Shown here one piece after another: positions 771 to 45,400 of a stretch of 64,000 nt of DNA; position 1 is the first letter of the stretch; each line of letters opens with the position of its first letter. The position numbers were made by a program, and so were the translations under genes. The DNA lies in contig NC_086374.1 of NCBI RefSeq assembly GCF_036588685.1, positions 29,326,001 to 29,390,000 of the forward strand, given 5' to 3'. Origin of the DNA: Mytilus trossulus. Lineage: Eukaryota. The notes below the pieces were generated by a model. That model was not told the origin of the DNA. It did no database searches and worked only from the letters and a program-made list of their open reading frames with translations.

Positions 771-1593
771 AAATTCCGCGAAACTTTTGCATAGTCTTTA
801 GCATCTAAACAATGTGACGTCATATGTATACTCTGGATGTCAAACATGATTACTAAAAGTATTTTTTACTTTTTGTACTCTTTAAAATGGTTTCAATATA
901 AACCAAAAGAAGAATTTGAGGCTCAAAAAGTACATTTTGTTTATTTTTTGAGAAATTACATACTCCAAAAAAAATCGGTGGTTTTCTTAGTTACGGACTG
1001 GAAGAATGTGAAATCTAACCCCTCAAAAAATTTATCAACGTCCAAAGAAAATTATCATTACAAACTAATTGCATTAGAACTCACAATATTTATACTCAAG
1101 TAAGATCAAATTTTAGTAAATGGCTGACCCAATTTAAATGGTTTCATTAACCAGTTGAAATGTGTATAAAGATAGAAAAGTTGTCTGATCTCTTTTTATT
1201 GGAACCAGCCAATGTTTCTCCAGATGGCAATTATTTGAGATTTTTCCATCCATAATGACATTTCAATAGAAGTTATCTTATATTAACATAACCAGATAAT
1301 CAAAATAACATCCCTATGATATTTAAAAAGTTTTTAGACTACTGTGGATACATTTATTTCCATGGGCATCAATTTTCGTTGATGGAAGAAAACTTGCATT
1401 TTTTCAGGATATTTGATTTGGTGGTTTTGCAAATATCTGCCTTACAAGCCTTTAGAAAATTTGTAATTGGTTGAACATTTGAATTCGTGTTTCACCTAAA
1501 CAGACAAAACTTGCGAAAAATAGTATCCAAAGAATAATACTGAATCCACAGTAATAAGAAGTAGACAGTAAAATAATGAAAATAAATGTTTAC

Positions 1594-10500: not shown

Positions 10501-13500
10501 TGTAAAAAAAATTATATATATATATATAGAATATTATACATTGTTTTCTATTACAAGAAAAATTTAGTTTCATATAACTTCAACTGTTAATCTAATGTGA
10601 ATATATAAATAAATGTATTATTTGTGAACCTTAACTACAGAAAAGTGAAGATCTGCTCTATATTTACACATATTTAAGTCTGAAATAGGAAGTAATTTCA
10701 TATTTGTCAATTTTTAAGAAAATGGTCATCATCATTTTTTAAACCTATTTTCAAGATTCTATGTGTGGTGCTACCCTCAAATTAATTTATCAGAAGACTG
10801 TCTTGAATTTGACCAAAATAGGAGAAGAATTAGGTTTTAGAGAAAATCTCTTATACTGATGTTATACATACATGTACATCAGAAATAACGCAATTGGTGA
10901 AAATCTTTTTTAACTGAAACAATTAGACATCTTAATGTATAGTCTCACAAAACTTTCACAACATTTTTTAAGGTAAAAAATTTCAGTGCCAAAATTTATG
11001 AGTTAGTGAACCCACTACTTTACAATATTAAAATTTGACTTTTAAGGTGAACATGGTGAAGGTCTATTTCAACAACAATTTATACAAAATCTATTAAAAA
11101 AAAAGCAAGTATTATGCACATCTTGATAATGATGCATACATGTATAAGGATTTAACATAAAGGATTACAACCCTAGACAGGCAGAGAAGAATTGGAAAGA
11201 GAGGGTAAGTGCTAGACAGGATTTAAATTTCATAACATTTGTTAAGGTTCGTCATAACCTTTCTGCTTAAAATGGCAGAGAGATAACACCTCTACATTTT
11301 GTTCTAAATACAGCCAAACTTGTACAATTTAAAGTTTTTGGTATTATCTAAATATATGTAAGCTATGTATGCATTTTGTGTTTCAATGTTTCAGGAAGTT
11401 AATCACTTTTATTCTATTACAATTACACTGTGAATGCATTCATGTCAACCTTTAACCTTTAAGCTTGTCTGGCTTGGGCTACAATAAGATAAAAACTCAT
11501 CTGACTTATAATGTATTATTTAATCAAACTGTCCTTACCTGTGCTACGCCTTTGATAGATACAGCAACACCTTGCAGGGTGTACACGTTTGGAGAATCTA
11601 TGTGGAGGGTCATAAGATTAAGGTCAAGCCTGAAAGCAAATCAGTTTCCACCATTTCAACAGAACAGTCATTACATTATACGCTGTAGTGGTCTACCGAC
11701 ATGTATGCTTTCTTATTTATTAACATGAAGACATGTCATGTAGTTTTATTACATTTAACAAAGGGAAGACAACCCTCTACCACAGCTATATGTACATGTT
11801 TAGTGAAGACTGACGTTAATATTCATACTTACGTACATTGCAACAGTGGGTGATGGCAAGAAGTCTAGACTTGCTGATAATTACCTTCTTACTCTAAAAT
11901 CATGTGAACTGGTTTGCTGGGGAAAAACTCATGCAAAGGTGGGAACCACGCTCAAGATAGCGAAAAATGAAAACTAAACACAATATATCAGACTTCACTT
12001 CTTACCTGTGCAATTCCTTTCATATGAACTGCTACTCCTTGTAGTGTATACACATTAGGACTGTCTATCTGGAGAGTCATTAAATTAAGGCTGACTCTGA
12101 AATCACATAGCTCTCAAAATCAACAGAAAACCATGCAAGTTTCAAGTGACTTTTTATGATGTGTTGAAAATTTGCAGCAATATTCATTAAATATAGACAC
12201 ATAACAGACAGAAAAGAAGGTTTTTTTTTTATCAAAATTAAAAAAATATTGCTTTAGGGACTTAAGCAATATTACAAATCTTGAATGACCAAGTTTTAAT
12301 TCCATTTTCCATTCTCAATATTCATGATATCAAAATATTTTCGAAATTTTCAAAGCATCATTATCCCCAGGAAACATTCTATAATTCAACCAAAAACATG
12401 GTTCATCTGCAGGCGAAGGCCATGCACTACATTACCTGGGCAATACCAAGTACTGAAATAGCTACACCATGTTGTGTGTAGACATTTGAGCTCTCTATAT
12501 GGATAGTCATGGTATTCAGCGATAATCTAAAAACAAAGCAGTAATACAGCAAAGCAAGTAGCAACAAAACAAATCATTAAATGTCTACAAAGGATGCAAG
12601 GTTAAGCATGCAAAACTAGAAACACTGAGTAAGTATAGGAGGAAATTGTTGGCAAAGCAATAGTACATAATGCAATGTCTGCCAATATTGACTAGTTTAT
12701 AAAAATGTTAAAAAAACACACACGCTTATTTTAACAAAGACATGCTTAAGAACAAGTTACTGTATTTCTTTTGCTTTACCAACAAGAAAGCATAATGATA
12801 ATAGTATTGGTTAAAACAAGACATGCAAGAAGTGGTAAATTATTTCACTGTTTATGCACTTTGAAGATTTAAGTAAATGTATGTCAATTTGTACAGGGTA
12901 AAAGGTAAATGGACAATTTCTCAGTCTAAGAAATCAAAATTATACTGCTTGGGAAAAGCTCACTGAAGTGTTTGAATGTCCCCCGTATTGGATATATTTA
13001 TCAAACTATTCAAGCCATCAAGGTACCAAGGCAATTACTTAAAGTTGGTTCTAATCTTTAAAACTTTTTAAAAATATCTTACAGAAAATGAAAATGAAGG
13101 CTTCAAGGCAAATGCAATGTGATTTCCTATATAACTAATATTTCAAAGAATTGTACACATGAGAGTGCTAACAATGCAATTTTCCATATAATAATCAATA
13201 TTTCCAAGGACATAACTCATTTAAAAATAATTGATTGGCACTGATTTTATAACCAGTCCTAGACATATCTGATATAATGCTATGATATAAGTTTTAAAAA
13301 AATCTGACAAGAATTTTACATGAGAGAGCAATAACATTCCTATATCTCACAATCAAGATCATTCTTTGCAGCTGACACAGGGAGAAATATTTGTATTTGA
13401 CAGAAAGATTTGATAAAGAGACAATTGCAAAAATATAATATGAAGGGGAAATAACTAAAATCTGACACGACACAAGGAAAAGTAACTGAAAATCAGTAAA

Positions 13501-16500
13501 AATAAAATGACAAAAAATGAGACAAGGAAAAACAACTAAATCAAAATCCATTTATATATTATATTTGCTGCTTATGAATTCAACTGATGTTTACAAATTT
13601 CAATAACCTAAGAATAAAATCTATCAATTTAGTTATAAATATTTATGAACATATACAAAAATCACCTCATAATGCAAACTGAAATAAACTACCACTTCTG
13701 GTTCCCAGAACCAAGCATTTCTGGCTTCTGTAAGTATGTGAAAAATGCAAATGTTAACAAGCCGATGCATTGTCCAATAAAATTAGTTCTAAGATTGTCA
13801 AAGTTGGTTCGCTAATCGATTGTGTGATAAAGTATCATTAAAATCTACTACTTCTTAAATTATAAATATAATAATTTGTAATACTAATTTTCACTTGATA
13901 AGCATCTTGGTCCAAATCTTTGTTATATGTTTTAGTAGTCATGTACATGTACAATGATACAATTTTTGAAAATGCCAACAAATTTGCCAGCCTGCTCAAG
14001 ATAAATTTCAATTGAAATGCATTTTAATAGAATCATCATGACCCTCAAAACTTACTTTATTGGACTTAAAGAGGTAAATTAAAGTGGTAAGTTCCAAAAT
14101 TTTGAATATTGTAAAATGTTCTTTTCTCACCTGTGCAACACCTGTAACTGATATAGCTACACCAAATTGTGTGTACACATTTGGACTTTCAATGTGTAAA
14201 GTCATGGTGTTTAGGGAGAGTCTGAAAATCAAATGCTTCAAAAATTAACAAAATTATGCAAAACAAAATTACCATTGCAAACATAAAATAAAACTAAACT
14301 AAAACAGGATTATGCAAATCTACACATAGATGCATAATTAACCTATAATAGGGAAAACTGAACAAGCAATGCCAATACACAGGTCACCTGTTGAAATCAT
14401 ATATGTGTGTATGATGCTTGGTCTCCCCTTTCAAGTCATGATATTTCAAAATATTAGATGCTGATATAGCTTATATTCAAAAATTTGGTCACGACAAATA
14501 TACCTATCATATTCATTTGAAAATTTCAATTTATATTGTCCATAAAAGCACTTTTGTAGCTAAAATTTAGCGTAAAAAACATTCCAAATGTTTAACATGC
14601 TAAAGGAGTTATCTATTATTTTTAATTCTATCAATATTGTTATTGAATACATTATATCTTTGAAACTGTACATGAGACAACAAAAAATTATGATCATATA
14701 CAATGTAGATATAACTAACTTGATTACAGAAAAAATAAAAAATCATTTTAGAAGGGGGAAATTATTAAGTGTTTACAAAAAGGTAGTTAAAAATATTCTC
14801 TTTCATGAAAGGATTTTTTAATGATGCAAAATAACAGCAATAAAACCAAAATTTGGCGAGGCAATAAAACCAAAATATGACCAGGCAATAAAACCAAAAT
14901 ATGGCCAGGCAATAAAACCAAAATATGACCAGGCAATAAAACCAAAATATGGCCAGGCAAAAACAACAGGAGGCAGCATCCCAACAAAACTCTACATATA
15001 AAAACAAGAAGTTATACATATATATCACAATAAATAGTGACAGTCAGGTAAATTAACTTACTTGAGCCGTGCCCGTAACTGACACTGCCACCCCCTGGGC
15101 AGTGTATACGTGTGGACTCTCAATAGATAATGTCAAAGTGTTCAGATTCATTCTGGTCAGCACAAAAGAGTTAGTAATCAAGTATCATTAGCAAAGTTTA
15201 CTCATTAACTGATTTTAGAAGACATTACTTCTTAGTTACTGCCCAAGATTTTACAAAAAGCTTACGGTAAAAATAAGGAGTTGTGCAAATGACACAAGAG
15301 GACAAGGAAGTAAACAACTATAGGGGAATAGCATGATAAAATGCTTCCACCTAAATAACACCACTTTCCAAACCTCACCTACAAAAATATATTCCAGTGA
15401 TGATATCATGACATGTACAATGTATTCAACCTCTATCTATAGTAAGTGGTGTGACCAACGAAACATTTCACACCTTATTTGATGGAATTAACAAATCTGA
15501 GAGAAATTTAGAAACATTGTTGTTCCTTTTGATATGTTCTTAACATTTGCATACATGTACATACATATATATATATACATTTGTATCTCAGAATCAAAAG
15601 TACAAGATTCTTTTCATATTTGATCTGGACCGACTTTTATCCAATTTCAAATCTTTTTTCAATCCAAAATAGCTGCACAAAATCAAGTCAAGGTAAATTG
15701 TATAAAGTTAATACTAACATTTCATTGGAGCATAAAATCAGGTTCATAATTATTTAACACAAAATATATACGTGTTAAGCTAACATAACATGAATACATG
15801 TAATTCAAACATTGACCTACACTTAGTACTTGTGAGACATCATGGCCAATAACGTTCCGACACAAGATGTTATTGAACATCATACATTTACAATTTCTAT
15901 TTTTTTTAAAATCTGTATTTAATCTGAATCATGTTTGCAATATAATTATACATAGTTAAAAGCATGATGAGGAAGTCTAATGTTTGAAAACATCTCCCTG
16001 AATATGTTGAAATTATGATCAATAATCTGATTATCTTATGTGTTTTGTACTTTATTTGTATAAAATGTATTATATTTACCTCTGTAATTTCTGTATAACT
16101 GGCCATACAAAGCATCGACCACCAGGAACAAATAATGATCTACCATGACAACATCCTACAAAAGACAATAATTTCAATGCTTTATTCACTAAGCATGCTA
16201 AGTTACATTTTGTGTTGGTCAGTGGCTGCCTAACATGAAATTCTCTTTTTTCAGATACCAAAAGATATATACATGTAGTCACATAGTGTTTCTCAATTAG
16301 AAATTTTTAGTCCTGATGTAACAGCAACTTTACATTATCAAAAGTAAACAAACTTCATGAACTTACATGTTTCCTATTTCCTTTCTTATCCTTTATTCTA
16401 AGCTTTAGAAATAACCTTACTGAAAGTTTTTTGGTCATTTTCCAATAGGTACTGTTTAAGTCAGAATTTCTTCTATCATCATGATCATATAGGCCGACTT

Positions 16501-18801
16501 CATTTGGAACCCGAGTTCTGACTTAGAGTTCCATATGAATGGTAAATAATTTTGAAGACCTAGATTACTGGATGTGCAATGCCCTTACTCTAAATACGTT
16601 CAATTACAAATTTGATTGGATTGACTTCATAACAATCATCTGGGATATCAAGTCCATAACAAGAACCTGCAACAACCCAGGGCTCCTCGAGTTACTATTT
16701 GCAGAAAAGGTTTATCCAATCATAACAAGTGTTATATACATGTATAACCATGTCAATCCCATCTACTCTAGTCAGAGGTTGGGTTCCAAATGAAGTCAGC
16801 CTATAACTGCCTTCAACAACTTCAAAAATTATGTCATAGGCGGAAACGGCATGAATTGATTTTATATAAACAAATTAAAAAAATATTAGAAAAATGAAGT
16901 GTATAATAATTATGATGTACCTATCTTCCCTATATTTTTTATAGATGTAATAGGAAACACAAATATTACTTTATTTCAATATTTGGCTTAACAACAGTGA
17001 AGTTCATTTCTAAAGAAAACAATAAAAGCCTTGACTGACCTGCATTTTCTAGCAGAGCTCCAGATAAGAATTCACAAATTGGGGTTTTTACCCACCATTT
17101 TCTTATGTAATTGGGTGATAAAGATTTTCAATTGCATTATCAATTCAAATTCACCCCTCAAGTAAATATCAAATTGGGTTTTTCACCACCAGGCTCCTTA
17201 ATGTATTGGGTTTTTACATCAACACACTATTGAATATTTAGGCAATATCAACCCCGGATGTTTTTCCATCTTAAGTATGTTTCTTTCTTTGAATAATATG
17301 TGCTATAGCTGTTTTATTTTCTTAATTCACTGACGAGCAATTGTAGGTTTAATTTGTGTCCCATTTTTAACCTTCTGTCAGTTTTGTAATTTCTCACAAC
17401 TTATAATGTAAACTGTATATAACGGATATGTGCATTCCCAAGCACTCGTCTCAGATCTTTTTTTCTCTTATATACCTTTATTTAAAAATTCTGAGAGGAG
17501 TACCTGTGTGTGTATTCACTCATTAACCGTAAAACGAAAGAAAAAAAATAGTATATAAACTCTCACTATACTTGAATGTTTTTGTTTTATTCAATTTACA
17601 TAAATCTGGGTTAATTCATCCTTTATTAGAACTTTTGGTTTCCAATTACATATCATTTCATAATTGATTTGGCCTTTCACATTTTCTAACGGCAACTGAT
17701 TCAGTTTTTGACGAAGTCCCGTGTTTATTAGCAAATTATGTTCTCGTTGAGGTACGCAAACACGCCCATGCGTTCGACGGACGCTTCCTAAAAACACTGG
17801 CTGAGTGTTGTTATCATCATATCTTTCCTTCAGCTATGCAAAAGAAGCTGAAAACATGCTTCTATTCAATATTTTTATCGGACATTCACTTTCGTTTTCA
17901 TTCAATGTACAAAATGTATGTTATGATAAATCTCAAGCAATTCGAAAAAAAAATATGACAACATGACGCACGCTAATCGGATAAACGCTGAGAAGATCGA
18001 AATGATTTCAAAACCACGTGTACCTTTTGAGCAAGGGAAAATGCCAACAGGGACCCATTTCAGCTACTTGATATGCAGGAATCTATTTTTAGAACGAAAG
18101 GACATTTCCAATTATAAATATAATAAAAATATTATAGATTACGCAACAAGTGAAAACAGATAAGGGTAAATAACGCAAACGGTAGCCAACAAAAGGGTTG
18201 AGAACTCATGGTTTTGGCATATAATTGGGTTTTCCTTTGAATTAATTGGGTTATTGAACCCTGCAATGGGCAATTGCATTGGGTTTTCTATTTTTTGAAT
18301 TGCATGATCACGCAAATACGCAGCTTATCTGGAGCTCTGTTCTAGGGTCTGACTTCATAATTGCCAAAATTAATTTTGTAAATGAACATTTATGAATAGA
18401 TAAATGTAGGGGTCGAGTACAAAATTAAGTAATAATTTATCTAACACAGTAATAGTCCACTTTTGAACTGAATTTCTGTCCTTTTACCACAGTCACTTGT
18501 TTTTATCCTGTCATGGGAAGGTCGACTATCAATTTTCAAGGGAACATTTTTATTCAATCCACTCATGGTGGGTCTCTAAGCCATTGTGCATCAGTGCAGA
18601 TTATGTAATTAGTACCCACTTATAATAAATGGAAGAATTATTTATCTATAATGGGACACAGAGTTTAAAAGTAGCAACCCGTAAAGATATGTTTCGGCGT
18701 CCATTCGCGGGATATGTATGACTGTAATTATGACCTGATTATAATGCAATCTTACCCGAAACAACCATTACTTCGTTCGGTCCACATGTTTCGAACCCCA
18801 T
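1594..18801 (-). CDS. FLOT1: Flotillin-1 (SPFH/band-7 family), multi-exon, 3' end outside window. Constitutive coding exons: 18801-18756, 16155-16080, 10177-10034, 9307-9188, 3426-3274, 3064-2883, 2129-2084, 1731-1594, plus one exon-3 variant and one exon-6 variant
   Basis: Spliced translation [41 protein letters not shown]/[ex3]/[73 protein letters not shown].../[ex6]/EAIAEEARM.../[14 protein letters not shown].../[46 protein letters not shown]. All introns are GT-AG with compatible phases; 364 codons lie in the window. Confidence 0.96.
2200..2457 (+). repeat. High-copy interspersed repeat; inverted copies at ~19960-20010 and ~20529-20670
   Basis: 'ataaaattgagaatggaaatgg..tgtgtcaaagagacaacaacc..cagctggcccctaaa' matches the reverse complement of the other loci. 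Confidence 0.7.
5122..6380. mobile_element. Non-autonomous Tc1/mariner(pogo)-like element
   Basis: TA|CAGTCGATTCC ... GGAATCTACTG|TA, imperfect TIRs, subterminal 'ttgcata' repeats. Confidence 0.7.
8200..8295 (-). CDS. FLOT1: FLOT1 alternative exon 6b (96 nt): [32 protein letters not shown]
   Basis: cattag acceptor with CTAAC branch point, gtatct donor, phase 0/0, paralogous to 6a. Confidence 0.9.
8443..8538 (-). CDS. FLOT1: FLOT1 alternative exon 6a (96 nt): [32 protein letters not shown]
   Basis: tttcag acceptor, gtgaag donor, phase 0/0; lies within ORF 8296-8556. Confidence 0.9.
11539..11629 (-). CDS. FLOT1: FLOT1 alternative exon 3e (91 nt): (R)[30 protein letters not shown]
   Basis: ctttcag acceptor, gtaagg donor, open frame. 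Confidence 0.9.
12006..12096 (-). CDS. FLOT1: FLOT1 alternative exon 3d (91 nt): (R)[30 protein letters not shown]
   Basis: tttcag acceptor, gtaag donor, open frame. Confidence 0.9.
12436..12526 (-). CDS. FLOT1: FLOT1 alternative exon 3c (91 nt): (R)[30 protein letters not shown]
   Basis: ttttag acceptor, gtaatg donor, open frame. Confidence 0.9.
14131..14221 (-). CDS. FLOT1: FLOT1 alternative exon 3b (91 nt): (R)[30 protein letters not shown]
   Basis: ttttcag acceptor, gtgag donor; lies within ORF 14008-14241. Confidence 0.92.
14835..14960. repeat. 24-bp minisatellite (~5 copies) between FLOT1 exons 3a and 3b
   Basis: ggcaataaaaccaaaatatg(g/a)cca repeated. Confidence 0.9.
15062..15152 (-). 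CDS. FLOT1: FLOT1 alternative exon 3a (91 nt): (R)[30 protein letters not shown]
   Basis: cag acceptor, gtaagt donor, open frame, phase 2/0, TACTAAC branch-point-like motif upstream. Confidence 0.9.
16492..16801. mobile_element. ~310-bp MITE
   Basis: TIR ggccgacttcatttggaaccc / gggttccaaatgaagtcagcc flanked by TA(TA). Confidence 0.8.
17053..18339. mobile_element. 1.29-kb non-autonomous DNA transposon in FLOT1 intron 1
   Basis: Perfect 16-bp TIR CAGAGCTCCAGATAAG and 6-bp TSD TTCTAG (17047-17052, 18340-18345). Confidence 0.88.
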
Positions 18802-22200: not shown

Positions 22201-23481
22201 CATTTGTTTTGCAACCGGATATTACATAGCGGTCCATCTATTCATCAAGTTAACAATTGTTTAAAACAACGGATAGCAAAATAGAATGGCCATTCTCCTA
22301 TATATAACCATATATAACGAAGGTCATAATGACATTCATATTTTCGAAACTGTCTATCATATAGCCTTTCTGTCTAGCTTCGAATGTTTTATCGTCTTAA
22401 AAGAAAACTAAATCTATTCCTGAACTCTTGAAATACACTGAAAAGGTTAGTTAAATGTCGCAAAGAAATACGACAAAAACTAGTTCAAAGCAACATAAAC
22501 ATCAATAGCTCAAGAGTTATCCGCAAGCAGAACAGCAACACCCCCAAACCGTTCCAGGACTGAATAAGACTTTTTAAATGTGAAAACTATTTTCAGTCCT
22601 GAAATGGTTTGGAAGGCCGATCCACAACGTGTTTCGTCTACATAAGACTCACCAGTGGCGCTCGAATCAAAATAGTTGGATGTCCAAATCGAATTGATAC
22701 AAAGTTAAGAGGTTTATATAATTGATTTTTTTTTTGTGATGGTTTGTGTGGATTCATGTCTTCATACATAGAAGTACTTACAGTGTTCATTCAAAACTCA
22801 TGAGACAGAATTTTTATAGTATATGATGTTCATAAAGCGACGATTATTTAAAACTTGTTAGTTCCCTTTTCTCTTATTTTTTTTATATCTTTTATATTAA
22901 TGATTTTAGTGCAATACATTTATTTTCAAGTGTTATCAATTTAAATCGATATATGATTTAAAACGTTTGATTGAATTCGCAAAAAAAAAACAGTACCGGC
23001 GTCATTTATTTGTATTTGATGAAGAATCGAACACTTTAGATATGATATTTGGTATGTGCCGAATAATATACCAGTCAGAATTCTCACACTGTCAAATCCG
23101 AACTTTAAGGACTAGATTCTGTATTCAAATCCGTTTGGCTTGTAAAATAAATCTAAGAGTAGAATGTTAGCATTCTGTGAATGAAAAATATTAAATTTGA
23201 ATGTCACATTAACTTTATAATGATGAGTTAAATCAACTGATTAGCAATTCAAGAGACACAAACAACCTCTAGTAGATTTAAAATTAATTATCATTATAAC
23301 GTATTTCATATAAAATTACCTATCGATTAAAATTTAAACTACACAAAAACACAAAAACTCAAGCTTAAGAGAGAAACTATAGAATTACATAAGTATACTC
23401 ATATTCTTATAACTTAAAAGTCAGTTGATTGATTTATAATGAATATTAAGTGTATATACCAAAACTTAGTCAACGAGTTCC

Positions 23482-24066
23482 TTATAAGATGGTACAGCAA
23501 CTATCTGACGTTTGTGATGAGCTGTAGTTATTACGTTGATAACTGGCTGCCGGACGGCTGTAACTCGAATGCCCATAAGTGATAGCGGGACGACTCTGTT
23601 CAGGTTCTTTTATCTTCCGTAACAAAACTGTTATTGGTTCAAGGAAGAAAGTCTGTAGCCATGAAAGTTTATAACACATGATCTTCTTAACTGCTACTCG
23701 AGCTTCGCCCACTACCACGCTTTGAACGGCTGCGACTGTAACATTAGTAGACCTTAAATTGAAAAACTCATTTTGGCTGTCACCACATGCATCAGGATTC
23801 AAAAATATGCATTTTCCTTCCATTATATCGGGTGATAGCTTCAGACAAAGTAGAACAAGAGTTTGTTCATCTACATTTGATAGGTTGTAATATTGCTGAT
23901 AATAAGTGAGTCGGGTTAAGTCATATCCTTTGTTTTCCAAATTTAGAACAACGCACATACAATTCAGATAGTACATCAGTTTAGCCCTTGGGTCGTTTGG
24001 AACAGTAACGGTTACACCAGTTGTCTCAACACCAACTCGATTGTTACGGAGAACTACCGCTGCCAT
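23482..24066 (-). CDS. Uncharacterised 194-aa single-exon protein, paralogue 1, C-terminal CCTIL (CaaX)
   Basis: Clean ORF with gcaATGG start; aligns along ~150 aa with ORFs 29317-29928 and 32654-33118. Confidence 0.88.
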   Translation of the reverse strand: MAAVVLRNNRVGVETTGVTVTVPNDPRAKLMYYLNCMCVVLNLENKGYDLTRLTYYQQYYNLSNVDEQTLVLLCLKLSPDIMEGKCIFLNPDACGDSQNEFFNLRSTNVTVAAVQSVVVGEARVAVKKIMCYKLSWLQTFFLEPITVLLRKIKEPEQSRPAITYGHSSYSRPAASYQRNNYSSSQTSDSCCTIL

Positions 24067-24159
24067 TGCACAGAAGCAGTGAAAGAGAGGTATAATTTAA
24101 AAACTTAAATATGACACAATATATTTACTCTTAGTGAAAAAAGAAAGAAATCCCGAGAC

Positions 24160-24180
24160 TTTATATGTAAATCCGGAAGT
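24160..24180 (-). promoter_or_regulatory. TATA-like (CATATAAA) plus ETS (CCGGAAGT) motifs upstream of paralogue 1
   Basis: About 95-115 bp upstream of the ATG; paralogue 3 has the same CATATAAA at ~32594. Confidence 0.45.
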
Positions 24181-25039
24181 AATGACAAGTGGTTAACCAA
24201 TGAAAAGAACTCCTGAAGAGTTTTATCTACATTCTTTAAATTTCTTAAGTACTAGTTAATAGTTATCAATATCATTTATTTTAAAATTTTAAAATTGATT
24301 ATATGTTTCTTAACGTAAGAAATAAACCCCTGCCTTACAATTGATAGCATAACAGAAGTACTGCTGGTGTGGTGTTTATAGTATGGCTGCTTCGCATAGC
24401 GCTTCATAGAAGTGGACTACTGAAATTGTACACCTTCATTAGCCGCTTAATCGATCTCGATAGCTCCACCCGACCACTTCTTTCAGTCAATGTAACCAAA
24501 GTACTTAATAATGTAGACTATTCATAAGTCAAATAGCACCATTAATATCTAGTTACAATCTACAATCAAGACAGTTAAAGATAAAAAAATTAAAGAATAA
24601 AACAATGGTGCTACTCTTATAGACTGTCATTGATGATTGGACTCAGCCAGCCTCTTATTTTTTAAGATTGAACAATTCAATTATCTATAGTGGATAAATA
24701 TCAACAGGGTAGCTTATGCCATTGTTTCTCAAATTTTAATTATACCGTGACCCTTGCATTTCAAATGATTGCGTTTGCGAGTTTCTGGTGAAGTGAATTC
24801 CAGAAAAGTGCGACCGTGAGGGAGGCAGGAAGGTCATTTTAGTGATAATTTTATATTTTCTCAGTTTGTTCTCTCTCCTTTAATGATAACCATTAATGTT
24901 CATTCCTATTTATCTGATATATTGATCATTACCTTATTTCAAACTTGATATCAAAATGTTCGAGCTTTACCATGTCTTCATTTAAAAGGAATTTGAAACT
25001 TTATTCGTATCATCATACGATAAATGTGTCAAATACAAT

Positions 25040-25170
25040 AATGATATTGACCTCTAAAACACTTCCTCTTTAAGTAATACTCATGAGTTCTCGGAAGCTT
25101 TGCTGGTAGTATACTGTTAAATCATGCATGGAAAATCCTCTTTTCACTTTGTTTTACCTATCTATCGCCT
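25040..25170 (-). promoter_or_regulatory. Conserved upstream block with GAS (TTCCGAGAA) and ETS (GAGGAAGTG) motifs
   Basis: Reverse-complement homologue of 31440-31590; ~1 kb upstream of paralogue 1. Confidence 0.55.
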
Positions 25171-28100
25171 TTATTATATCGTGTCATTGTACGGATAAGA
25201 AGTATACACTAAAGACTGATAGACGTGCAAATTAAATCTGTTTGCACTTTCACGCATATTAGAGAAACGTCGCACGCTACTGGTGTTACTTTGGTGAAAT
25301 CACAGACAAGACACATTCATCTTGTTAATTTTGAAACATAAAAATGGAAAGTATATAAAGTGTTGTATATCATTTTAAAGCTTTTAAACATATTATTGCA
25401 ATTTTGTATATGTAACAGACCATTTTCATTAATTAAAACTCAATAAAACCTTTTTTTTGCAATATGATTTCCTTGTCCCGCGTTACATTTTTAGTTTTGT
25501 GAAATTCTGAATACCATAAAAAACATATAGTTTGTTTTACCAAACGATATAAAAGTTTGTCTAGAACAAGCAATTTATAAGTGGGCGATGACTTAATGCC
25601 GATTTTTCTCTCTCAAAAAGACGGAAATATAAAAAAAAAAATTGATCAAGATAATACAAATTATGTGTCCCATGCACGGAAGGTTGACGTAATTTTTTTA
25701 AAATTGTCCCAAAAAAGGGAATTCCAGAGTAATCCCAATGTCGAAAGTAAATAATTCTTATACTAGTATTTTGTACATAGATCACACTTTCGCCTCATGA
25801 AATAATCAGGATTTTTTCAAACAAATTCTTTTTATTTGAGTTGATTAGCAATGTCCGTTATTTTGTCCCCTTCAAACCAAATTAAACGTAGGGTTACGTT
25901 TTCTGATTTTTCATGATGTTTATTTAATACAGTCATTCGCTACATAAAAAAAACATAATAATGGATAAAAGTACAAAAAATTATCTCTATTTGATATTAA
26001 ATACCCATAAATTAAATCTAATATACTAGATATCAGATAAAACTAAAATGTCCGATACAATGTCCCCACATACGATTTTGACGTTATTTAATAAAATATG
26101 CTTCTAACGTTTCGTCTTATTGTCATGATTGCGGTTTCACAGACGATTTGGAATACGGCTATTTTATTTAGTTGCTGAATAAGAAAACTTTAAAATTAAT
26201 GTTTTATGTTGAAACTCTTTCGACTCATAAAGAAGGGGCGAGGAGAGAGATTTCCTCGCGGAACTGAAGTGTTTTCCGGACTAAAATAGTCGGATCCGCT
26301 ATAATACAAATTAGTAGAAAAAACAGCTATAATAATTGTTCCCGCTAATTCCCTTGCATATATTTGTGCAAAACTGCCATGCTAGATATGCCGTAGACTA
26401 GTCCTTTCGTCTGGACATTCTGGAGTGCAAAAAATGAATGCATTTGCAGTGCATAGTTTATCCATAAAAAAGAAGAAATCGATTGCCTTTATAATTAAAG
26501 TGTATATAATTAAATGATTTCAATTCAAGTTACTTTTTTATTTTTAATTTCTTAATAAAACTAAAGCTTAACATCTTTCGTCTAAGAAAAAAAAAAATCT
26601 TTTCTTAGGGAAACAAATCCATCCTTTAGAATTTATTGTAAAAAGTCATCTGAACAACATGCATTTCAACGTTTTTATTTTGTCTTACGTCTTTTAGTGT
26701 GTAACGTTAGGTGACACCAGTATCGTGCAATGTTTGTAGTTGGATCTATCAAGTAACATCGTGATTTCTTGAGGATTTCATTATCTAAATTTAGGAAATC
26801 AGGTGATGAGCAGTAAATTTTCTATTCAGATTCCATTGAGTCAGTTATATTTTTCTGTTCAACGTGAATGGTCTTTATATAATGCATATTTACAGGTTTT
26901 TGTTTGTAACCAATGTGCTGACTGAAGTAACATAATTTTCAATAGTGACCTTTATTAATAAAGGATTTAGCACCTAGTAAACGAAATTGATAAACGTGAC
27001 AACATGCAATTGAGAAATAGTAAAATATTTTACTGGATGTAGAAGATACTTTGTAGACAGGGTTTTCTTATATGACAGACCTACATTTTGTTTTTCCAAT
27101 GACAGAGATTTTGATAGGGAAATTTGTTATCCCTTTGATGGTTTCGATTTGTAACGTGTTTTTCCCCATTGTTTATGCTTTACATTCTGATATTACGAAT
27201 TATTATATTCTATTATAAGAAAGAAAGGAAAAGACATTGTATTGAGCGTTTGCCATTCAAGGATACATCGTGGCCACAATTTAATTTGTATCTGTTTATT
27301 ATTAAATTTATATTAAGATCCATTTTGTTACATCTTGTGATCAATTTTATTTGGCAGTCTGCGGGGTTAAAGAACATCAGTTGTTCGACCTGTTAGTCAA
27401 ATGCGTTTTGTTTAAATATTCTTTTTCGCTTTGTTTTGTCTTCTGGAAAATGTTGTTTGTGCTGTTTTTAGACCCTTCTACAACGAAATTTGTTTTACAT
27501 GCACACGTATAAAAATTGCGGTTTTTATCCATCGCAATCATAGGTTTGAACGTAGTTTTCAATTTAGACTCGTATACATAAACTATATTATGTAATAGTA
27601 AATTGATAACAGTTTTGATTCGAACACCACCGATGAGTTTATGTAGACGAAATGAACGTCTGGTGTACTTAAAATTATTCGATTGATAACTTTGAGGATC
27701 TTCGCTCGACCCATAAACATCCACTAAAATATTCTAAATGGTTGTTCCATTCACTTACTCATAAAATCAGCACTTAAATTAACTCCTCCTCATCATCATC
27801 ATCACCATTATCATCATGTTAAGATGCCTATTAAAAAAAAAAACTCGGTATCTCCAAATCTTTTCAAGTGTCCATTTGGTAAAGTTTTGTAAGCAGATAC
27901 ATTCATATTTTGTTTGGACTGTGGAGATATTTTTGCATCCTTGTACAAGTATTAATACTTATAAGATTTATTTGATTCTTTGTTTTTTGTGATTTCGTGT
28001 ACATGGTGTAAGGACGAATAGAGATTGGGGCTAGTCATTAACATTTTCAACACAACAATAATTAAGACGACATTATGTTTCGCTATATTTAAAGTAACAA

Positions 28101-29316
28101 AACAAATCATCTGACCAAAGTGTTCTTAACTTTAACCAATGGGTTGAAAGAAAACTATGTGATGACTAATTCACTGAACCAAATTTACCTTGTCTCAATA
28201 TTTTTTGCACAATGAAAATGAAGGAAGTATGTGTCTGGATGCTTTCCTTTACATTCCCAAAAAAGTTATATCACAAAAATACTGAACTCAGCGGAAATTC
28301 AAAATGGAGAGTACATGTACGTATTCAAATTGCAAAATCAAAATCTCTAACACATCAAACAAATGGATTACAACTATCCAATTCCTTAATTGGTACAGAC
28401 ATTTTCTTATGTAGAAAATGGTGGATTGAACCTGGATTTATAGCAAGCCAAACCTCTACTTTGTATGACGGTCGCATAACATTCCATTATATTGACAACG
28501 ATGTGTGAACAACAAAAAAAGCCAGACATACTAGGGAAACATGTCAAACATAGAGGTACAGCATTCGGCGGGATGTATAAGTACTGTGCCAGATCATATG
28601 TAACAAACAAAAAATACAAAAAGGCATATAATGGTTTACTTTTTTAAAATATTATTTGGATGTAGAGTTGTCTCATTGGCACTCACACCACATCTTGCTA
28701 TATCTATATAGACAAATCACATTAGCAAAAACGAAAGACTAGAACACAAATATTTTACCATAGAACACTGAATAACACAAAAATGGGAAGTATGAGTACA
28801 GTAATGGTAATATTCATATAGACACATACAAGAATACAATATCACGTTATTAAGATGATAAACAACGTCAGGACCCCTAATCTATACTTCAAGACCATTG
28901 TGTATTATTTGAGAAGTTGATACGGAACATTTATCAACAAGGTCTTGGTACCTTCCGCTGAATTTTTTTTTTTTTAGAAAAAAGACAACCTTTGTGAAGC
29001 AGATGGCGAAATATTAAGTAATTGGGTTAATATATTATATATGAGAACAGTACGAGATAAAAGGACCAACGTATATACGGATGGACGAACGGTGGATAAT
29101 GCGAATGCAGCATAGAGCTTGAGTGGGGTTTTAAAAGACAAGCACAATGACAAGAGCTTAATATGTGAATTATAATTTAATGGTTATCTCAATCTTAATC
29201 TTGCTTTTACATATCTATTATATGAAATTTGTGATTTCCATATACCGGGTAGTTATTAGATATATCACATTAATATTTTTTTTCTTCTTTCAGGCATCAT
29301 TATTTCTTGATAGAGC

Positions 29317-29928
29317 TTACAAAATAACACAACAGTCCAAAGATTCCGATGTAGATGTATAATACCAGTTAACATTGTTTCTTGTTGTGTTCCTGTGTAT
29401 TTGTGGTGTAGCTGACCTTGTAGTAATTGCTGGCCTGTTCCTATACGTAATTGATTGTTGATTTCTTGTAGGAGTAATACCAAGAACGTTGCTAATCGGA
29501 TGTATATAATTTCTCCTCATCCATGACATGGAATAGACCATTATCTTCTTCACAGTTACTTCAACTGCTCCGACAAACACATTTTCTGCAGCAGCAAATG
29601 AAATCTCCGAACTGTTTAAGGTAAAAAATCGGTTTCCAACGTCCTGGCAAAGCTCTTCAGAATTGAAGATACACTTGCCGACCATCTTGTCGGGAGATAA
29701 ATAGCCACACAGTACAATAAGTATTACTTTCTCGTCTTCTGTCAACATATAGTAATTTTTGTAATCACTTAATCTTTCAATATTGAAATCCGTATCTTCC
29801 AATCCTAAAACATTACACAATACACTCAAATAATACATGAGTTTTGCTGTATCATTGTCTAAGACATCAACAATAGAACCAGTTTCTGTTATTCCTATTT
29901 CTCTACGATTTAACACTACTGTCGCCAT
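29317..29928 (-). CDS. Uncharacterised 203-aa single-exon protein, paralogue 2, C-terminal CCVIL (CaaX)
   Basis: Clean ORF with shared motifs AKLMYYL..LC.VL, LSPD.M.GKCIF, V.VKKIM.Y..SW. Confidence 0.88.
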   Translation of the reverse strand: MATVVLNRREIGITETGSIVDVLDNDTAKLMYYLSVLCNVLGLEDTDFNIERLSDYKNYYMLTEDEKVILIVLCGYLSPDKMVGKCIFNSEELCQDVGNRFFTLNSSEISFAAAENVFVGAVEVTVKKIMVYSMSWMRRNYIHPISNVLGITPTRNQQSITYRNRPAITTRSATPQIHRNTTRNNVNWYYTSTSESLDCCVIL

Positions 29929-30742
29929 ATTTTACATTAAGTGGTAAATTACATTATAGGATTTTAAATGCAGATCTATTTTTACATAAGTAAGTCCTTG
30001 GTACAATAATTCGGTACATTGTTTTAATATATGTTATAAAATAATAAAAGATTTTTTATGGATCGAACAAAAATCCTCAATGTTTTCAGTCGATTTATTG
30101 GATTCATGTAGACGCACATTCCTTGTACATGTATGGTAAAATACTTTAAATGAAGGGCCATTATTGAAATAACGTATTACACCAGTCAATTCATTGGTTT
30201 CAAAAAGCAAGCTGTATGTTTTATAGGGGTTCTCTGTTTCTATCTATAGCATTCGATCTGCATTATTATATCAAATTTTAGAAAGGGTCATCAGTGTATA
30301 TCTAAGACCCTGTTGCAAATAATAAGCGATTTACATGTATCAGTCATTCTCCTTTTTTAGTCCTATATGTTCTATTGTGGAATGACATAACCCATTCGAT
30401 AAAAGTCTTTTCAACAAAAAGCTTTTTACATTTTTCTGAATATGTTTTAGCTTAAAACAAGATTTCAGACCGACTAAAGTTTCGATCAAATCAACGCAAC
30501 TTGATAGCCCTGTTGAAAATTGAATCAGAAGTTCGAGGACACAGATTTTAGAAAGTCAAAATTTCAAGTTAGAGTAAAAATTTCGGGATTTGACAAATCA
30601 AAATTTCAAGTTGTAGTCAAAATTTCGAGATTTGAAATGTCAAAATTTCGACTTTGAAAAAAAAGTTCACTGCCAATTTGTTTTTTCTATGTCCCTAATA
30701 CGCTTCCGTAGAATACAGTCCCAAGTGCAAACAGTGTAAAAC

Positions 30743-30772
30743 CAGAGACATTAATGTGTATATATGTCTGTG
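30743..30772. mobile_element. Third, degenerate CAGAGACAT palindrome with 7-bp TSD
   Basis: GTAAAAC|CAGAGACATTAATGTGTATATATGTCTGTG|GTATAAC (one TSD mismatch). Confidence 0.6.
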
Positions 30773-31439
30773 GTATAACTTACTTTTTCATACTCTATCC
30801 CAATCTATATCTTGATCTTCATGCACGAAATACTAAGTAAGGGGATAATAACATGCATGTAAACATAACTGAGTGCTGTAACCTTTATGTTTAGAGGGGA
30901 TTTGGTCCAGTTAAAATAGGTAAAACAAATAAGTGTATCTCAATCTATCATAATTATTGAATTTTAGACCCCCTTAACATAGAATTGTCAATATTTTGAG
31001 TAAGAGCTGGTATAACTTTTTATGATTTGGATATTATTTGTCCCAATAAAGGTACACTTTACTGTAAAATCCTTTTTGAGATAGAGCAGGTGCGATTTGT
31101 TTATGTGTCATTAAAGAAATAGCTATTAATTTAGAGAAAATCATCTAGGACATTAAGAAACCCTGTATTAAATCCAAAGCACAGTGCTTTTGATTTAAAT
31201 TTTAAAGCTTGACAAGTATTTCTTTAATAACCCTTGTAAGTTACTTACTAAAGACACCAGTCTACGCATGAAGCATGAATTCTTATAGATGTTCAAAACG
31301 CTTACAAAACAAATTGCAATGGATCTATTCTTTCTTGCAAAAAGTCTAAACCAAACCGAAAATATAACACCGATTCATACACGTGTCTAGGCTGAATTTG
31401 CTTCTAATTTAAGCGATGACTTGACCATTTTAAAATTTA

Positions 31440-31590
31440 AGGGCAGAATATAGGTAAAACAGAATAAATTGAGGATTTTCAAATATATATACTAATGTTT
31501 TTAAATGTACTAAATGTTCCATCAAAAGTTCCGAGAACTCGTGAATATAGATAACTTCAACGAGGAAGTGTTTTAGGGTTCATTATTCCT
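31440..31590 (+). promoter_or_regulatory. Conserved upstream block with GAS (31529-31537) and ETS (31562-31570) motifs
   Basis: Homologous to 25040-25170; ~1.1 kb upstream of paralogue 3, between divergent paralogues 2 and 3. Confidence 0.55.
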
Positions 31591-32653
31591 GCGGCATGGT
31601 TATATACGATACTTATAAATTTTTAAATGTCATAAATTAAATCATTTTTTTATGCTTGAACAAGTTCAAATCAGTTTTGAAATTAAAATTTGGTTACTAG
31701 TACATATAATTGGTAATGCTATTAATTTTTATATCAGATAAATTAATGAACTGTCAAAGCTTTAATGTAGAAGTAAAAACAACGACACATTTCGTGATAT
31801 TTGAAAATAACTTTGATTAAGTTATAAATAATTTCGCCATATAAACGAACAGTTGCACAAATAAAGTGTAAATATTCATTATAACTTAATAGTCATTTTT
31901 GGTAAAAATCTTGAAAGATAATTTGAGACCTTTTGCAATTCAAGGTAGCAAAGAACTCTATATTTTAACCTACGGGTAACATCTCTTTGTGATATTGGTT
32001 TGTGAGACTTGGGAAGAACTGTGTTTGTGTTTTATGTTATCGTCTATGTGTGTGTGTTTTATGTTATCGTCTATGTGTGTGTGTGTTTTATGTTATCGTC
32101 TATGTGTGTGTGTGTGTTTTATGAGTTATTTGTTTGTGTTGTTGTAGTCTTTTTGTGTCATATGCTACATTTGGAATTAATAAGGGGCTATGGAAAGAGA
32201 TTATTGCAAGCTTGCTGGATAGGAATTTTCCTCGTGATTTTTTTTAAGATTGCAATATTCAATGTATTGTAATGTAATGAAACCAAATATATGTTTATGT
32301 CTTTTATTTATCAAACCGATATACTAGTAGGTGTCAAAATATTTATGTTACTAAGGAAGGTCGATACACTATTTTCTTGCTACCATACCGTTAAATTTAG
32401 TATTTCAGCGAACTCGTTATTTATGTTTATCTTTAAATGTCAATGTCCTTTATATTGAGAGGAGTGATATCTTTTGGAGAAGATTCAAGTTTATGTCCTA
32501 TTTTAATTTAATGGTTTTCGTCGAATATTAACTTCCTTCTATCTTTTCCACTGCTTACATCATGTCTTTTGATAATTTCGCCCGCCTTTATGCCATATAA
32601 AAAGCCACTCAACAGACAACATATGTTAGACCACAGACCGTTGCAGCTTCAAG

Positions 32654-33118
32654 ATGGCGCTAGGAATGAGATTCAACAATTATAATTTAGAACAAACATC
32701 AACATCTTGTACAGTACCGGACAATCCAATATCGAAACTGATGTACTACTTAGAGTCAGTGTGTACAGTTATAGATCTTAAGAACGACTCTGTTCCAGGA
32801 CTTGAAAGGCTGACGAATTATATGTTATACAGATATCTCACAGATCGTGAGCTGATTTTATTAATAAGGCTGTGCGAAGTTCTAAGTCCGATGATACTAA
32901 TTGACAAAGTATTTTTCAGGAACGCCAGATTGTGTGGTAACAGTTTAAACAGATTTTATAATCTAAGAACTATTCAGCATACAATCGCTGCTGCAAGGTC
33001 AATAGTCGTTGGAAATAGACGCGTTAGTGTGAACAAAATTATGGTTTATGAACCAGCGTGGTTTCAAAACAACTACTATGGACCATTGAGATTCATAAAA
33101 GTACTGCTCAACATGTAG
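32654..33118 (+). CDS. Uncharacterised 154-aa single-exon protein, paralogue 3, lacking the CaaX tail
   Basis: aagATGG start, TATA-like at ~32594, AATAAA at ~33164; shared motifs PDNP.SKLMYYL, LC..LSP, LCG.S.NRF. Confidence 0.85.
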   Translation: MALGMRFNNYNLEQTSTSCTVPDNPISKLMYYLESVCTVIDLKNDSVPGLERLTNYMLYRYLTDRELILLIRLCEVLSPMILIDKVFFRNARLCGNSLNRFYNLRTIQHTIAAARSIVVGNRRVSVNKIMVYEPAWFQNNYYGPLRFIKVLLNM

Positions 33119-41949: not shown

Positions 41950-42457
41950 AATTTTCTTATTTGTCATCTTAAAGTTTACGTTCTTTACTCCAAATTAGAA
42001 TATAATAGGTATGTTACATAATGTATTTGTACGTATCATAAAATTTATTTTCAATACGATGTTTTTATATTTAACACATTAAAATTAATATTTTACGATA
42101 TTTTGAAATCGTTAATCTAGAATCGCTTTGTTTATTATACAAAGGTACACCATTTTTGTCATAATGGCAAACAGACAGTGTTCGGTTCGTATTCAAGACA
42201 AGTATAGAGGGTTTGTGCAAATGAGTATACACTATCGGAAGCACTAAATGTTTTATTGATTTCTTTCATTATTATTACATTATTATAGTATAGTAGTCTC
42301 AGTTTCTATAAACTACATTCTCTTCTTTAAAAGTTATGGTATCATTATATAAATTTTGAGATTACAATTGCATTTTTAAAACAGTATCATATGATTGAAT
42401 ATGATTGACTGGTATTTAACCTAAATTTGCATGAAAAAATATATTCTTGATTTACAG

Positions 42458-45400
42458 GACAAACTCAACCAAATAGCCTACGACTGGTAAATGGTAAACG
42501 ACCAACTCAAGGTAGATTAGAGATATATCATAACAACACTTGGGGATCTATCTGTGATGACCACTTTGACAACAATGCGTCTATAGTAGCATGTAAACAA
42601 CTAGGATTTTATCAGTCGTAAGAATATATTTGAATACTGCTTTGCAAGACTGCATCACCTATTTTCCCTATTTACCACTATCTATGCTATGTGTCTATAT
42701 TATATTGTACATTGAAGTCTTACTTAATTCTTGTACAGGTAATATTCTCAGGTGTAGGATTTGACAAGATTTTAAAAACAATAACAATAAAAAATGTTGC
42801 ATATCAATTTATCAAGTCTATATAGTATCTGAGACATACATGTGTCACGATCGGCTTATATTTGAAGTGACACCATCTGAATATAACCGTGACAGTTTCA
42901 TGACTGAGTCATACTGATTTTTTAAAATTTTTACTGTTTTTTTCTTCTAATTCATTTTCCTTTTTCTAATGTCTAATGTCATTTGGTATAGATAAGATCA
43001 GATAATGCCAAATTGTGCCGTTGTCTGTTTTTATGTAGACGAAAGCGCGCATGGTCTGGTGTATTTTATATTATACGCCTGGTACCTTTGATAACTGTTT
43101 AACCTTTCACAGTACAACTTTTTTTCTTAGAATGATCATTTATTATGATGATAACACAATATTGACTGCTGTACCCCTATTTTTGACATTTTTACTCTTT
43201 GAGTATGTTTGTTTTGTTCATACATCGTTGACTGGCAATGTAATGGAATTTGATGCGACTGTCATACAGGTGAGAGGTTTAACTAGCTATAAAACCAGGT
43301 TCAATCCACCATTTTCTACATTAGAAAATGCCTGTACCAAGTCAGGAATATGACAGTTGTTATCCATTCGTTTGATGTGTTTGGAATTTTGATTTTGCCT
43401 TTTGATTTTGGATTTTCCTTTTTGAATTTTCCTCGGAGTTCGGTATTTTTGTGTTTTTACTTTTTATAATATTAAATTTTTTATTGTTGGATAAGATACG
43501 GGTTATTGAAAATCTCTAAATGACCGATTTCCACTAGTCGATACCGTATTTGAAAAACTACACACTAAGTTCGTTTCTCTCCCTTTTCTTGTGATTCCTC
43601 TCCTCTTCCTTGAAGAAAGTCATGAAAATACCCGACAGATAACAGTAACATCAGGCGCGTAGCTCCCTATACGCCAACACGCAGTTGCGTGCACATCGAT
43701 TTGGCATGCAAAATAAAATTGCAAAATAAACATTTATAAATTAAATGTTTAAAGGAAACACATATGTTGTCACTTTTTTAATTGATGAAATGTCATTAAA
43801 TAACGGCATTTGGTTTCAAAATAGAAGTTCTATTGGAGATCATGACAAAATCGGACAGTATTACTTGTATCTCATTTCAAGATTTGAATTTGTTATATCA
43901 GTCTAAGACATGTAATTTCGGAGCACATTTTACAGGGTACGGTTTATCTGTTTGGAATGAGATGTACCAATCGGCATTAGATTTATCAGAACCCTTCGAT
44001 ATCGTTGAAAATATGACACGGCGATGTGTTCTACAGACTACCAGAGCCAATCACCCTGCAAACACGCCAAAACAGTATTGGAAAGTCTCGTTATAATTTG
44101 CGTTTATAGACCATATGATAATGGAACTGGAGAGTGTAGTCACGTCACGACAGAAAATCGCTTCTTTGTGCCGTATCTGCTTCTTCTTGTTGTAGGAAAT
44201 ATAACAGACTAACAAATCTCAACATTGTCTGAGACATACGAAACTGACCTGGTATGTAGTTTTGACGAATTCAATTGGGAGGTCGCTCGATGGCGAATAC
44301 GTACGTTGCATGGTTTATAACATCTCGCAAGTGCTACCGTGGAGATCTATCGGTGTACTAGTCTGTTGAAATCAAATGTACGACCAACAATGCACAACTA
44401 CTGGTTATCATCGCTAGCATTACTGCATATCCATCGGCGTTTCAGTGTAAATATTGACAAAGTAATAGAGAAGTTCGTTTCTGCCTAGACCCGAAAAGCA
44501 GATTTTGGACAATTTTGAGTAAATTCTGTATCAGAAAAATGTGTAGTTTATGTTTTCAATTAACCATGCCGATTTACTCTATTCAGAAGCTTTATTAATA
44601 GTTTTACATTCATAAATTGTTAATAAGTCCTATCTACATGTAGCTCCTCTTTCAACTGTCCTATAACCGAAAACCGAAAAAAAAACATTTTTCTGCGTAA
44701 AAGGGTCCCAAAAATTTTTCGCCTCGCTCCGCTCGGCGGTACTTGCTTGCACATTGTTTCTTTCTAGCTACGCCCCTGAACATTAACAGGGTACCCTCCT
44801 TTACATTTTTTTTATGCAGAGCAAAATAAGGTATATATATAATCATTTTGATTCAGTCTGCCTAGAAAATAAAATATGAGTGGCATCATAGTCACTACAG
44901 TTACACTCATTTTGCAATATTTACATGAGGTCAGACAAATAGCCTTTCAAGATGTCATATTTATTCAGAACTATAATCCAACAGTCCTATGTAGTTGTTA
45001 TATTTAAGAAATAATTGATGCATTGAAGCTATACTTTATTGTAGAAGGGGTCGAATTTAAGCTTTTTTGTGTACTGGCCAGCCGTGGGCCTGTGACAGAA
45101 TATAAGTTCCCCCATAATATTTGTTCCAAAGAACTTTTAGCATATAAAAAAAGTTCCATTGGGAACTTTACTTGTATAATATTTTATCCAATGCTATAAG
45201 AAAATTTCCTTCACAAAGGATAAAATATTACATAAGGAAAGTTCCCAATGGAACTTTTGTCATATGCTAAAAGTTCTTAGAATAAATATTATGGACAATG
45301 TTTTATATACTCATGATATTATAATGAAAGTTCCAGGAACATTTGTTATATTATAAAAGTTCTGGGAATATTTGTTATATTATAAAAGTTCTAGGAATAT

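Follow-up and report, generated by a model that had tools for sequence, protein, structure and literature searches.

A 64,000-nucleotide stretch of the Mytilus trossulus genome (NCBI RefSeq assembly GCF_036588685.1, contig NC_086374.1, positions 29,326,001 to 29,390,000 of the forward strand), referred to here as the window, contains three intronless genes, P1, P2 and P3. As judged from sequence comparisons and structural models, they represent a real, widespread and undescribed family of predicted membrane-anchored proteins, built around a domain of about 150 residues with an apparently unrepresented fold. An earlier sequence-only reading of the window had proposed three intronless open reading frames (ORFs), two ending in the tails CCTIL and CCVIL and the third reduced to the core; all three frames are present and unbroken at the coordinates below, and both tails and the core-only form are seen in the translations.

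The three paralogues and their family

23482..24066, minus strand: paralogue 1 (P1, P0001), intronless coding sequence (CDS), 194 amino acids
29317..29928, minus strand: paralogue 2 (P2, P0002), intronless CDS, 203 amino acids
32654..33118, plus strand: paralogue 3 (P3, P0003), intronless CDS, 154 amino acids, core only

P1 consists of the core (residues ~1–153), a disordered linker containing RPAITY, and the CCTIL tail, which is a CaaL motif with an adjacent cysteine. The linker of P2 bears SITY and RPAIT, the latter having been noted beforehand in both linkers and found in both, and its tail is CCVIL. P3 terminates with LLNM immediately after the core and has no tail. Identity to P1 is 42% for P2 and 45% for P3, with 44 invariant columns in the three-way alignment, and the tblastn-type E-values against P1 (2e-36 for P2 and 9e-29 for P3) are far beyond chance. 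Synonymous sites are at or close to saturation among the three genes, which are therefore old duplicates. A Mytilus edulis protein shows 94% identity to P1.

The sequencing runs from which contigs were taken carried no RNA label, and run X5 was checked through a flotillin splice junction. One X5 contig joins the end of exon 1 of the neighbouring flotillin gene (18755, before GTAAG) exactly to 16154; therefore, X5 holds spliced RNA. Contigs of this run cover P1 without gaps (23407–24109) and most of P3 (32708–33093). X1 contains an ungapped contig over P1 as well, running from 24125 to 23344, and an X2 contig likewise starts at 24125. Runs X19 and X7 contribute contigs over P2, and X4 and X7, in addition to X5, contigs over P3. 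That the X1–X3 contigs leave P2 and P3 uncovered is uninformative on silence or absence. In the RNA-Seq run X24, raw reads were found at low depth (0.5+1.24) over 29406–29872, a bin inside the P2 CDS. Given this contig and read cover of each paralogue, all three are probably transcribed, intronless genes. The sequence-only reading was to be given up if no expression was found; probable transcripts were seen, as contigs on P1 and P3 in the spliced-RNA run and as reads and contigs on P2.

Two TATA-like boxes were located upstream of the genes:

24160..24167, minus strand: TATA-like box CATATAAA, putative P1 promoter, ~35 nucleotides upstream of the 24125 contig start
32594..32602, plus strand: TATA-like box CATATAAAA, putative promoter, ~55 nucleotides upstream of the P3 ATG

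Contig ends such as 24125 cannot establish a transcription start. The copies of the family on contigs C5 and C8 of the assembly are likewise preceded by TATA-like boxes. Just upstream of the P1 box lies an ETS-like word, CCGGAAGT (24173–24181), and near the putative P1 start there is a GAAA-rich stretch (24134–24150), each as a consensus match only.

Outside the window, a profile search of the family returned 1,150 clusters (50% identity) at E ≤ 0.001, and 156 at 1e-30. Named members come from the bivalves Mytilus, Magallana gigas, Pinctada imbricata and Potamilus streckersoni, from the bdelloid rotifers Adineta, Rotaria and Didymodactylos, and from the sponge Sycon ciliatum; as organism names were obtained for 5 of the 30 clusters looked up, this range is an underestimate. 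Some metagenome loci of the family have a guanine-plus-cytosine content of 16%, 21% or 70%, which suggests that they derive from non-animal eukaryotes. A set of 77 metagenome loci, redundant and biased towards intronless genes, yielded 78 ORFs with the whole core in one frame. No family match was found in phages by tblastn, and none of the pattern matches in viral (0/14) and prokaryote (0/5) genome contigs was confirmed, one short pattern of low sensitivity having been used for each. At two likely-rotifer loci, a family gene is adjoined by a gene of ~300 residues (L043:3877–4806 and L052:4288–5202), 66% identical between the two, with a hydrophobic N-terminus and no Pfam match.

The conserved core domain

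AlphaFold2 models of P1 and P3, built with 141–149 sequences, are concordant (P1, predicted local distance difference test score (pLDDT) 83 and predicted template modelling score (pTM) 0.75; P3, pLDDT 89 and pTM 0.85). The predicted structure is an alpha+beta domain with helices at residues 26–40, 50–61 and 64–82, a long helix at 134–153, a small sheet (87–89, 99–103 and 128–132) and a hairpin at 116–126. Covariation couples residues 14–15 to 100–103, so an N-terminal strand probably joins the sheet. The segment 101–120 is conserved and less confidently modelled (pLDDT 75–83), and the linker is disordered. A homodimer prediction for P1 residues 1–166 scored 0.00; the alignment was not used in that run, in which the fold of the monomer itself was uncertain.

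Conservation was calculated over 141 sequences and is mostly hydrophobic and structural. Y33 is the sole invariant residue (100%), followed above 90% by M31, P79, N99 (97%), F101, M130, W136 and P144. No single Asp, Glu, Lys or Arg exceeds 71%, and the most His-rich column reaches 13%. Cysteines C36 (81%; Ser in 14%), C74 and C94 are each present in 73–83% of the sequences with no pairwise co-occurrence, and a metal or disulfide site formed by them was rejected on that ground. No acid, base or histidine is invariant and the three cysteines do not covary, which speaks against an enzyme or metal site of the conventional kind. The high conservation of residues such as Cys36, Tyr33 and Asn99 could reflect an unusual active site in a membrane-tethered enzyme, but C36 is replaced by Ser in part of the sequences, no His, Asp, Glu or Lys is invariant, and the cysteines lack the covariation expected of metal ligands; such an enzyme is very unlikely. 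From the conservation pattern, we lean towards a binding rather than a catalytic role for the domain.

The domain had been described as uncharacterised, a view to be dropped on a confident match to a characterised family, and none emerged from the libraries and structures searched. Pfam gave no match to P1–P3 up to E 10, searches of PHROGs, NCBIfam and PADLOC gave only scattered matches in 1–2 of 141 members, and no PDB entry was found by sequence (best profile E 0.22). ESM Atlas gave no usable match for P0001 or P0176. Foldseek returned no PDB match at E 0.001 for either the P1 or the P3 model, and a search of viral models (BFVD) gave none. In a wide alignment against 48,161 chains, nothing reached Z ≥ 5 for either model; the best scores, 4.0 and 4.4, were obtained with the ChiS DNA-binding domain (7kpo; 78–79 residues aligned, 5% identity), and Z 7–8 is the typical best chance score of the tool for unmatched models. 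A missing fold match is, however, not proof of a new fold. Literature outside subscription journals, searched with core motifs, six accessions and topics, contained nothing on the family, and a search with the linker motif gave noise only. The family may have an unnamed cluster in PANTHER, InterPro or AlphaFold DB, libraries that lay outside the search.

Chains of the glycolipid transfer protein (GLTP) fold, which are of similar size, appeared in both wide searches, with 100–113 residues superimposed at a root-mean-square deviation (rmsd) of 3.8–4.6. They include HET-C2 (3kv0; Z 3.7, 112 aligned, rmsd 3.8, and Z 3.3), 2i3f (Z 3.7 and 3.0), FAPP2 (3.3) and CPTP (2.9 and 2.7). Along with the mostly hydrophobic conservation, this is what would be expected of a remote GLTP-fold analogue that extracts or senses lipids and possibly shields its own prenyl group. 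Nevertheless, the scores (Z just 2.7–3.7) are tied with those of unrelated chains and lie below the chance-typical value, identity is 8–12%, and there is no sequence match: GLTP was not detected by Pfam in P1–P3 (E up to 10) or, at E up to 0.05, in 149 relatives. The GLTP fold is all-alpha (two-layer) and carries a histidine in its sugar headgroup site, whereas the models hold a beta-sheet and a hairpin, and no histidine column is conserved. A lipid-binding or transfer protein of this type is thus an unlikely explanation.

The hairpin region is basic (mean net charge +2.35), and natural proteins with two to four tandem cores exist (P0011, P0035, P0009 and P0014). Both features, and the conserved but less confidently modelled segment 101–120, would fit an oligomerising membrane effector, such as a coat, filament or pore, in which the flexible segment 104–115 and the hairpin engage the bilayer or other subunits. 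Against it, the strands are weakly amphipathic (moment 0.17–0.22), and neither gasdermin, aerolysin nor any other pore-forming fold is listed in the PDB and viral structure searches, although these lists cannot exclude one. We regard such an effector as improbable.

Predicted membrane anchors and turnover of copies

In the 150 best representatives of the family, 87 sequences end in a CaaX motif, 17 in a hydrophobic or transmembrane (TM) segment and 23 at the core, while 23 have other endings. The CaaX pattern occurs at 177 of 28,564 internal positions (0.6%), and the CaaL tail with adjacent cysteine pointed out in P1 and P2 thus belongs to a conserved family trait. The last residue is Leu in 53/87 CaaX tails, an adjacent Cys is found in 38/87, and a second signal (an upstream Cys or three or more Lys/Arg) in 59/88. 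A similar distribution was seen in the 78 metagenome ORFs (52 CaaX and 12 TM). In relatives of P1 and P2, the tail takes the form C-a-I-S/M/Q or gives way to a tail-anchored helix or to a Cys-rich segment of the BRI3 type, and a predicted membrane anchor is the constant feature across the family. According to established CaaX rules, CaaL directs geranylgeranylation. Lipidation and membrane residence of P1 and P2 are, from their tails, highly probable.

In a FastTree phylogeny of 246 cores (domains with fewer than 100 profile positions excluded, midpoint root, deep nodes weak), 48 sequences, most of them with CaaX tails, form a group (support 0.90) nested within rotifer-type proteins that bear transmembrane tails. 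Hydrophobic tails turn up at several further places as well, and repeated switching between CaaX and TM tails may be inferred. P1 and P2 fall in a clade of 25 (support 0.94), together with 13 of 19 genomic copies. P3 is placed by the tree on a separate, older branch alongside P0029, a protein that shares 69% identity and the same end point with it; the tail-less state is therefore conserved, and both the tailed and the tail-less versions, which the sequence-only reading had distinguished, are old states.

In the linkers, a motif of the RPAITY type, R-x-[AQS]-[IL]-[TEP]-[YW], occurs in 23 of 119 tails, compared with 3.3 in shuffled sequences (maximum 10 in 500 shuffles). The architecture varies further in a few relatives. 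P0058 has a BRI3 segment in place of the CaaX tail, the sole curated cut-off pass among the 149 relatives, and P1–P3 have no LITAF or BRI3 domain in Pfam. P0316 has a ZZ zinc finger fused to the core. P0316 and L115:1–1212 both show the core followed by a repeated HCxHCKG...C.C...C segment, apparently a zinc-finger-like motif without a name. Two other fusions, P0315 (ART and monooxygenase) and P0221 (GILT), were set aside as, in our judgement, probable merged gene models.

Two protein searches of the M. trossulus genome gave 25 and 26 matches, which resolve into 25 loci on contigs C2, C5, C8, C13, C17 and C38. The cluster of three recognised earlier is real, but it is part of a wider family of at least 25 loci on six contigs. 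This count is a minimum; copies on C17 and C38 are almost the same in sequence as those on C8 and C13 and may be their haplotypes. The core lies in a single frame at 19 of the 25 loci, including a C13 copy that stops within the last helix, and is broken by stops or truncation at the other six; 13 of the 19 intact copies have a CaaX ending. Pairwise ratios of nonsynonymous to synonymous substitution rates (dN/dS) are 0.09–0.10 for tail-less C8 pairs and 0.31–0.70 for six pairs of the C5 cluster. The genomic copies are undergoing birth-and-death evolution under uneven constraint. At C2:41.194–41.196 Mb there is a divergent sub-branch with a longer N-terminus, in which the usual N-terminal strand motif is lost, and its two-gene pair recurs in metagenome locus L107.

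The strong purifying selection on some copies would also suit a constitutive membrane-trafficking adaptor that, much like LITAF/BRI3 proteins, serves endolysosomal sorting or recruits ubiquitin ligases and that expanded by neutral birth and death, and so would the BRI3 and ZZ fusions. The similar RhoB tail CINCCKVL confers, through isoprenylation and palmitoylation, endolysosomal targeting in distant species, according to PMC4160200. On the other hand, the family is intronless (78 ORFs at 77 loci, in a search biased to such genes), numbers 25 loci in this genome and has no member in Pfam or the PDB. Housekeeping trafficking factors are usually intron-containing, low-copy and found in model organisms. 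A constitutive adaptor of this kind therefore seems rather unlikely.

Possible role and genomic setting

The reading that we favour, tentatively, is that P1–P3 are membrane-tethered, non-enzymatic adaptors in an inducible defence or stress response. A geranylgeranyl group on the CaaL cysteine of P1 and P2 and a palmitoyl group on the adjacent cysteine would, like the predicted TM tails of other members, hold the domain on the cytosolic face of a membrane, with the disordered S/R/P/T-rich linker spacing it from the bilayer. The RPAITY-type motif, and sometimes a PPxY, could allow the trafficking or ubiquitin machinery to dock, and the domain may bind a protein or lipid-linked partner through M31, Y33, F101, M130 and W136 together with the basic beta-hairpin. 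Tail-less copies such as P3 could act as soluble competitors or be recruited by tailed ones. The genome shows copies duplicated in tandem, pseudogenes and, in one cluster, relaxed constraint; this turnover resembles that of immune genes and may be read as a sign of a defence role. An immune role of the family is plausible, and a defence or stress context comes close to an even call.

Several observations weigh against the favoured reading. No X24 reads fell on P1 or P3 in the 19% of the run that was read. Neither kind of anchor is present in 46 of the 150 representatives (23 short, many of them probably truncated predictions, and 23 with other endings). The linker-motif enrichment is inflated, because the pattern was defined on the data in which it was counted, and PPxY occurs in just 7 of 119 tails (shuffle maximum 9). 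No pair examined has dN/dS > 1, so the C5 values are explained equally well by relaxed constraint and by an arms race. Finally, the ORFs scanned beside family genes at metagenome loci of at least 5 kb (28 of 53 long ORFs, duplicates and some short ones being dropped) encode ART-TPR, TPR, MACPF, NHL, laminin-G, Src-type kinase and metabolic proteins; the ART-TPR, MACPF and NHL neighbours, at two likely-rotifer loci, are weak evidence, because such genes are abundant in bdelloids.

The paralogues had also been described as lying between flotillin-1 and SRCR genes. Both neighbours were recovered, a flotillin-1 exon being matched with E 4e-17 to human flotillin-1, compared with 1e-9 to flotillin-2:

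1495..18801, minus strand: flotillin-1 gene, multi-exon, with its ATG at 18801 and the lowest exon-bearing frame observed at 1495
42451..51935, plus strand: exons of a multi-SRCR scavenger-receptor gene (42.4–51.9 kb)

The flotillin-1 ATG lies 4.7 kb downstream of the P1 stop on the same strand, and dual lipidation is generally known as a raft-type signal, as would be expected if the proteins partnered flotillin or rafts and their genes were retained next to FLOT1 to be regulated together with it. However, 22 of the 25 loci lie elsewhere, spread with the others over six contigs, and neither a flotillin nor an SRCR protein was among the 28 neighbouring ORFs scanned in other organisms. The adjacency to FLOT1, from which a raft link had been suggested, is therefore best read as incidental, and such a partnership is extremely unlikely.

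Other elements of the window were recorded. Two similar frames resembling flotillin-1 exons stand side by side at 8173–8556 (minus strand), a tandem pair that could represent mutually exclusive exons. At 52973–56554 (minus strand), an open frame of 1,193 codons carries PF21787, the N-terminal domain of TNP-like RNase H (E 7e-6). For the 1,528 bases of it that were tested, contig C1 holds a copy with 100% identity and C5 a partial one with 92%, and the frame is likely a recently mobile DNA transposon. High-copy repeats, recognised by very high contig depth, lie between and after the paralogues at 27.1–27.7, 28.2–28.7 and 33.4–35.4 kb and give rise to spurious short ORFs. A 131-codon frame at 62178–62573 (minus strand) has no Pfam match.

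Among the closest known systems are the RhoB-type CC-aaX proteins, which share with P1 and P2 a C-terminal CaaL and adjacent cysteine after a polar/basic linker; yeast Ras2 and Rho2 are also dual-lipidated CC-aaX proteins. The mussel domain is unrelated to them. No P-loop GTPase was found by Pfam (E up to 10), by conserved columns or by PDB sequence match, and across the family the tail is exchanged for a TM helix or absent. LITAF/BRI3 (PF10164) proteins are likewise small, and in them a linker rich in Pro and Tyr accompanies a hydrophobic, Cys-rich anchor at the C-terminus, but the conserved part of the present family is a separate folded domain. GIMAP/AIG1 and GBP immune GTPases have expanded in tandem in particular lineages and vary in their C-terminal anchor, which is either a CaaX motif or a transmembrane segment. 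This is an analogy only, as the mussel proteins have no GTPase domain and no sequence or fold match to them. What is new is the domain and its apparently unrepresented fold, while the architecture of domain, linker and CaaX is of a familiar kind.

With over a thousand sequence clusters and a confident model without a solved-fold match, the family is a direct target for structure determination, for which P3 offers a natural 154-residue, domain-only construct. The apparent repeated exchange of prenyl, tail-anchored and Cys-rich anchors suggests that membrane residence is a selected trait, and the family provides a natural series for the study of anchor interchange. According to PMC7653742 and PMC10514466, mussel genomes are rich in uncharacterised, tandemly expanded and dispensable genes; the dispensable ones are associated with family expansion and with roles in stress and immunity, and many of the gene arrays with strong expression are uncharacterised. 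A broader proposal, which we consider somewhat unlikely, is that the family represents a membrane-defence module of ancient eukaryotic origin and new alpha+beta fold, missing from curated family collections, which bivalves and bdelloid rotifers expanded independently of one another. In this view, copies with a lipid or helical anchor would assemble on membranes and tail-less copies would regulate them, as an unrecognised arm of invertebrate innate immunity. If the family is induced by infection, it would constitute a new component of bivalve and rotifer immunity, with relevance to shellfish disease.

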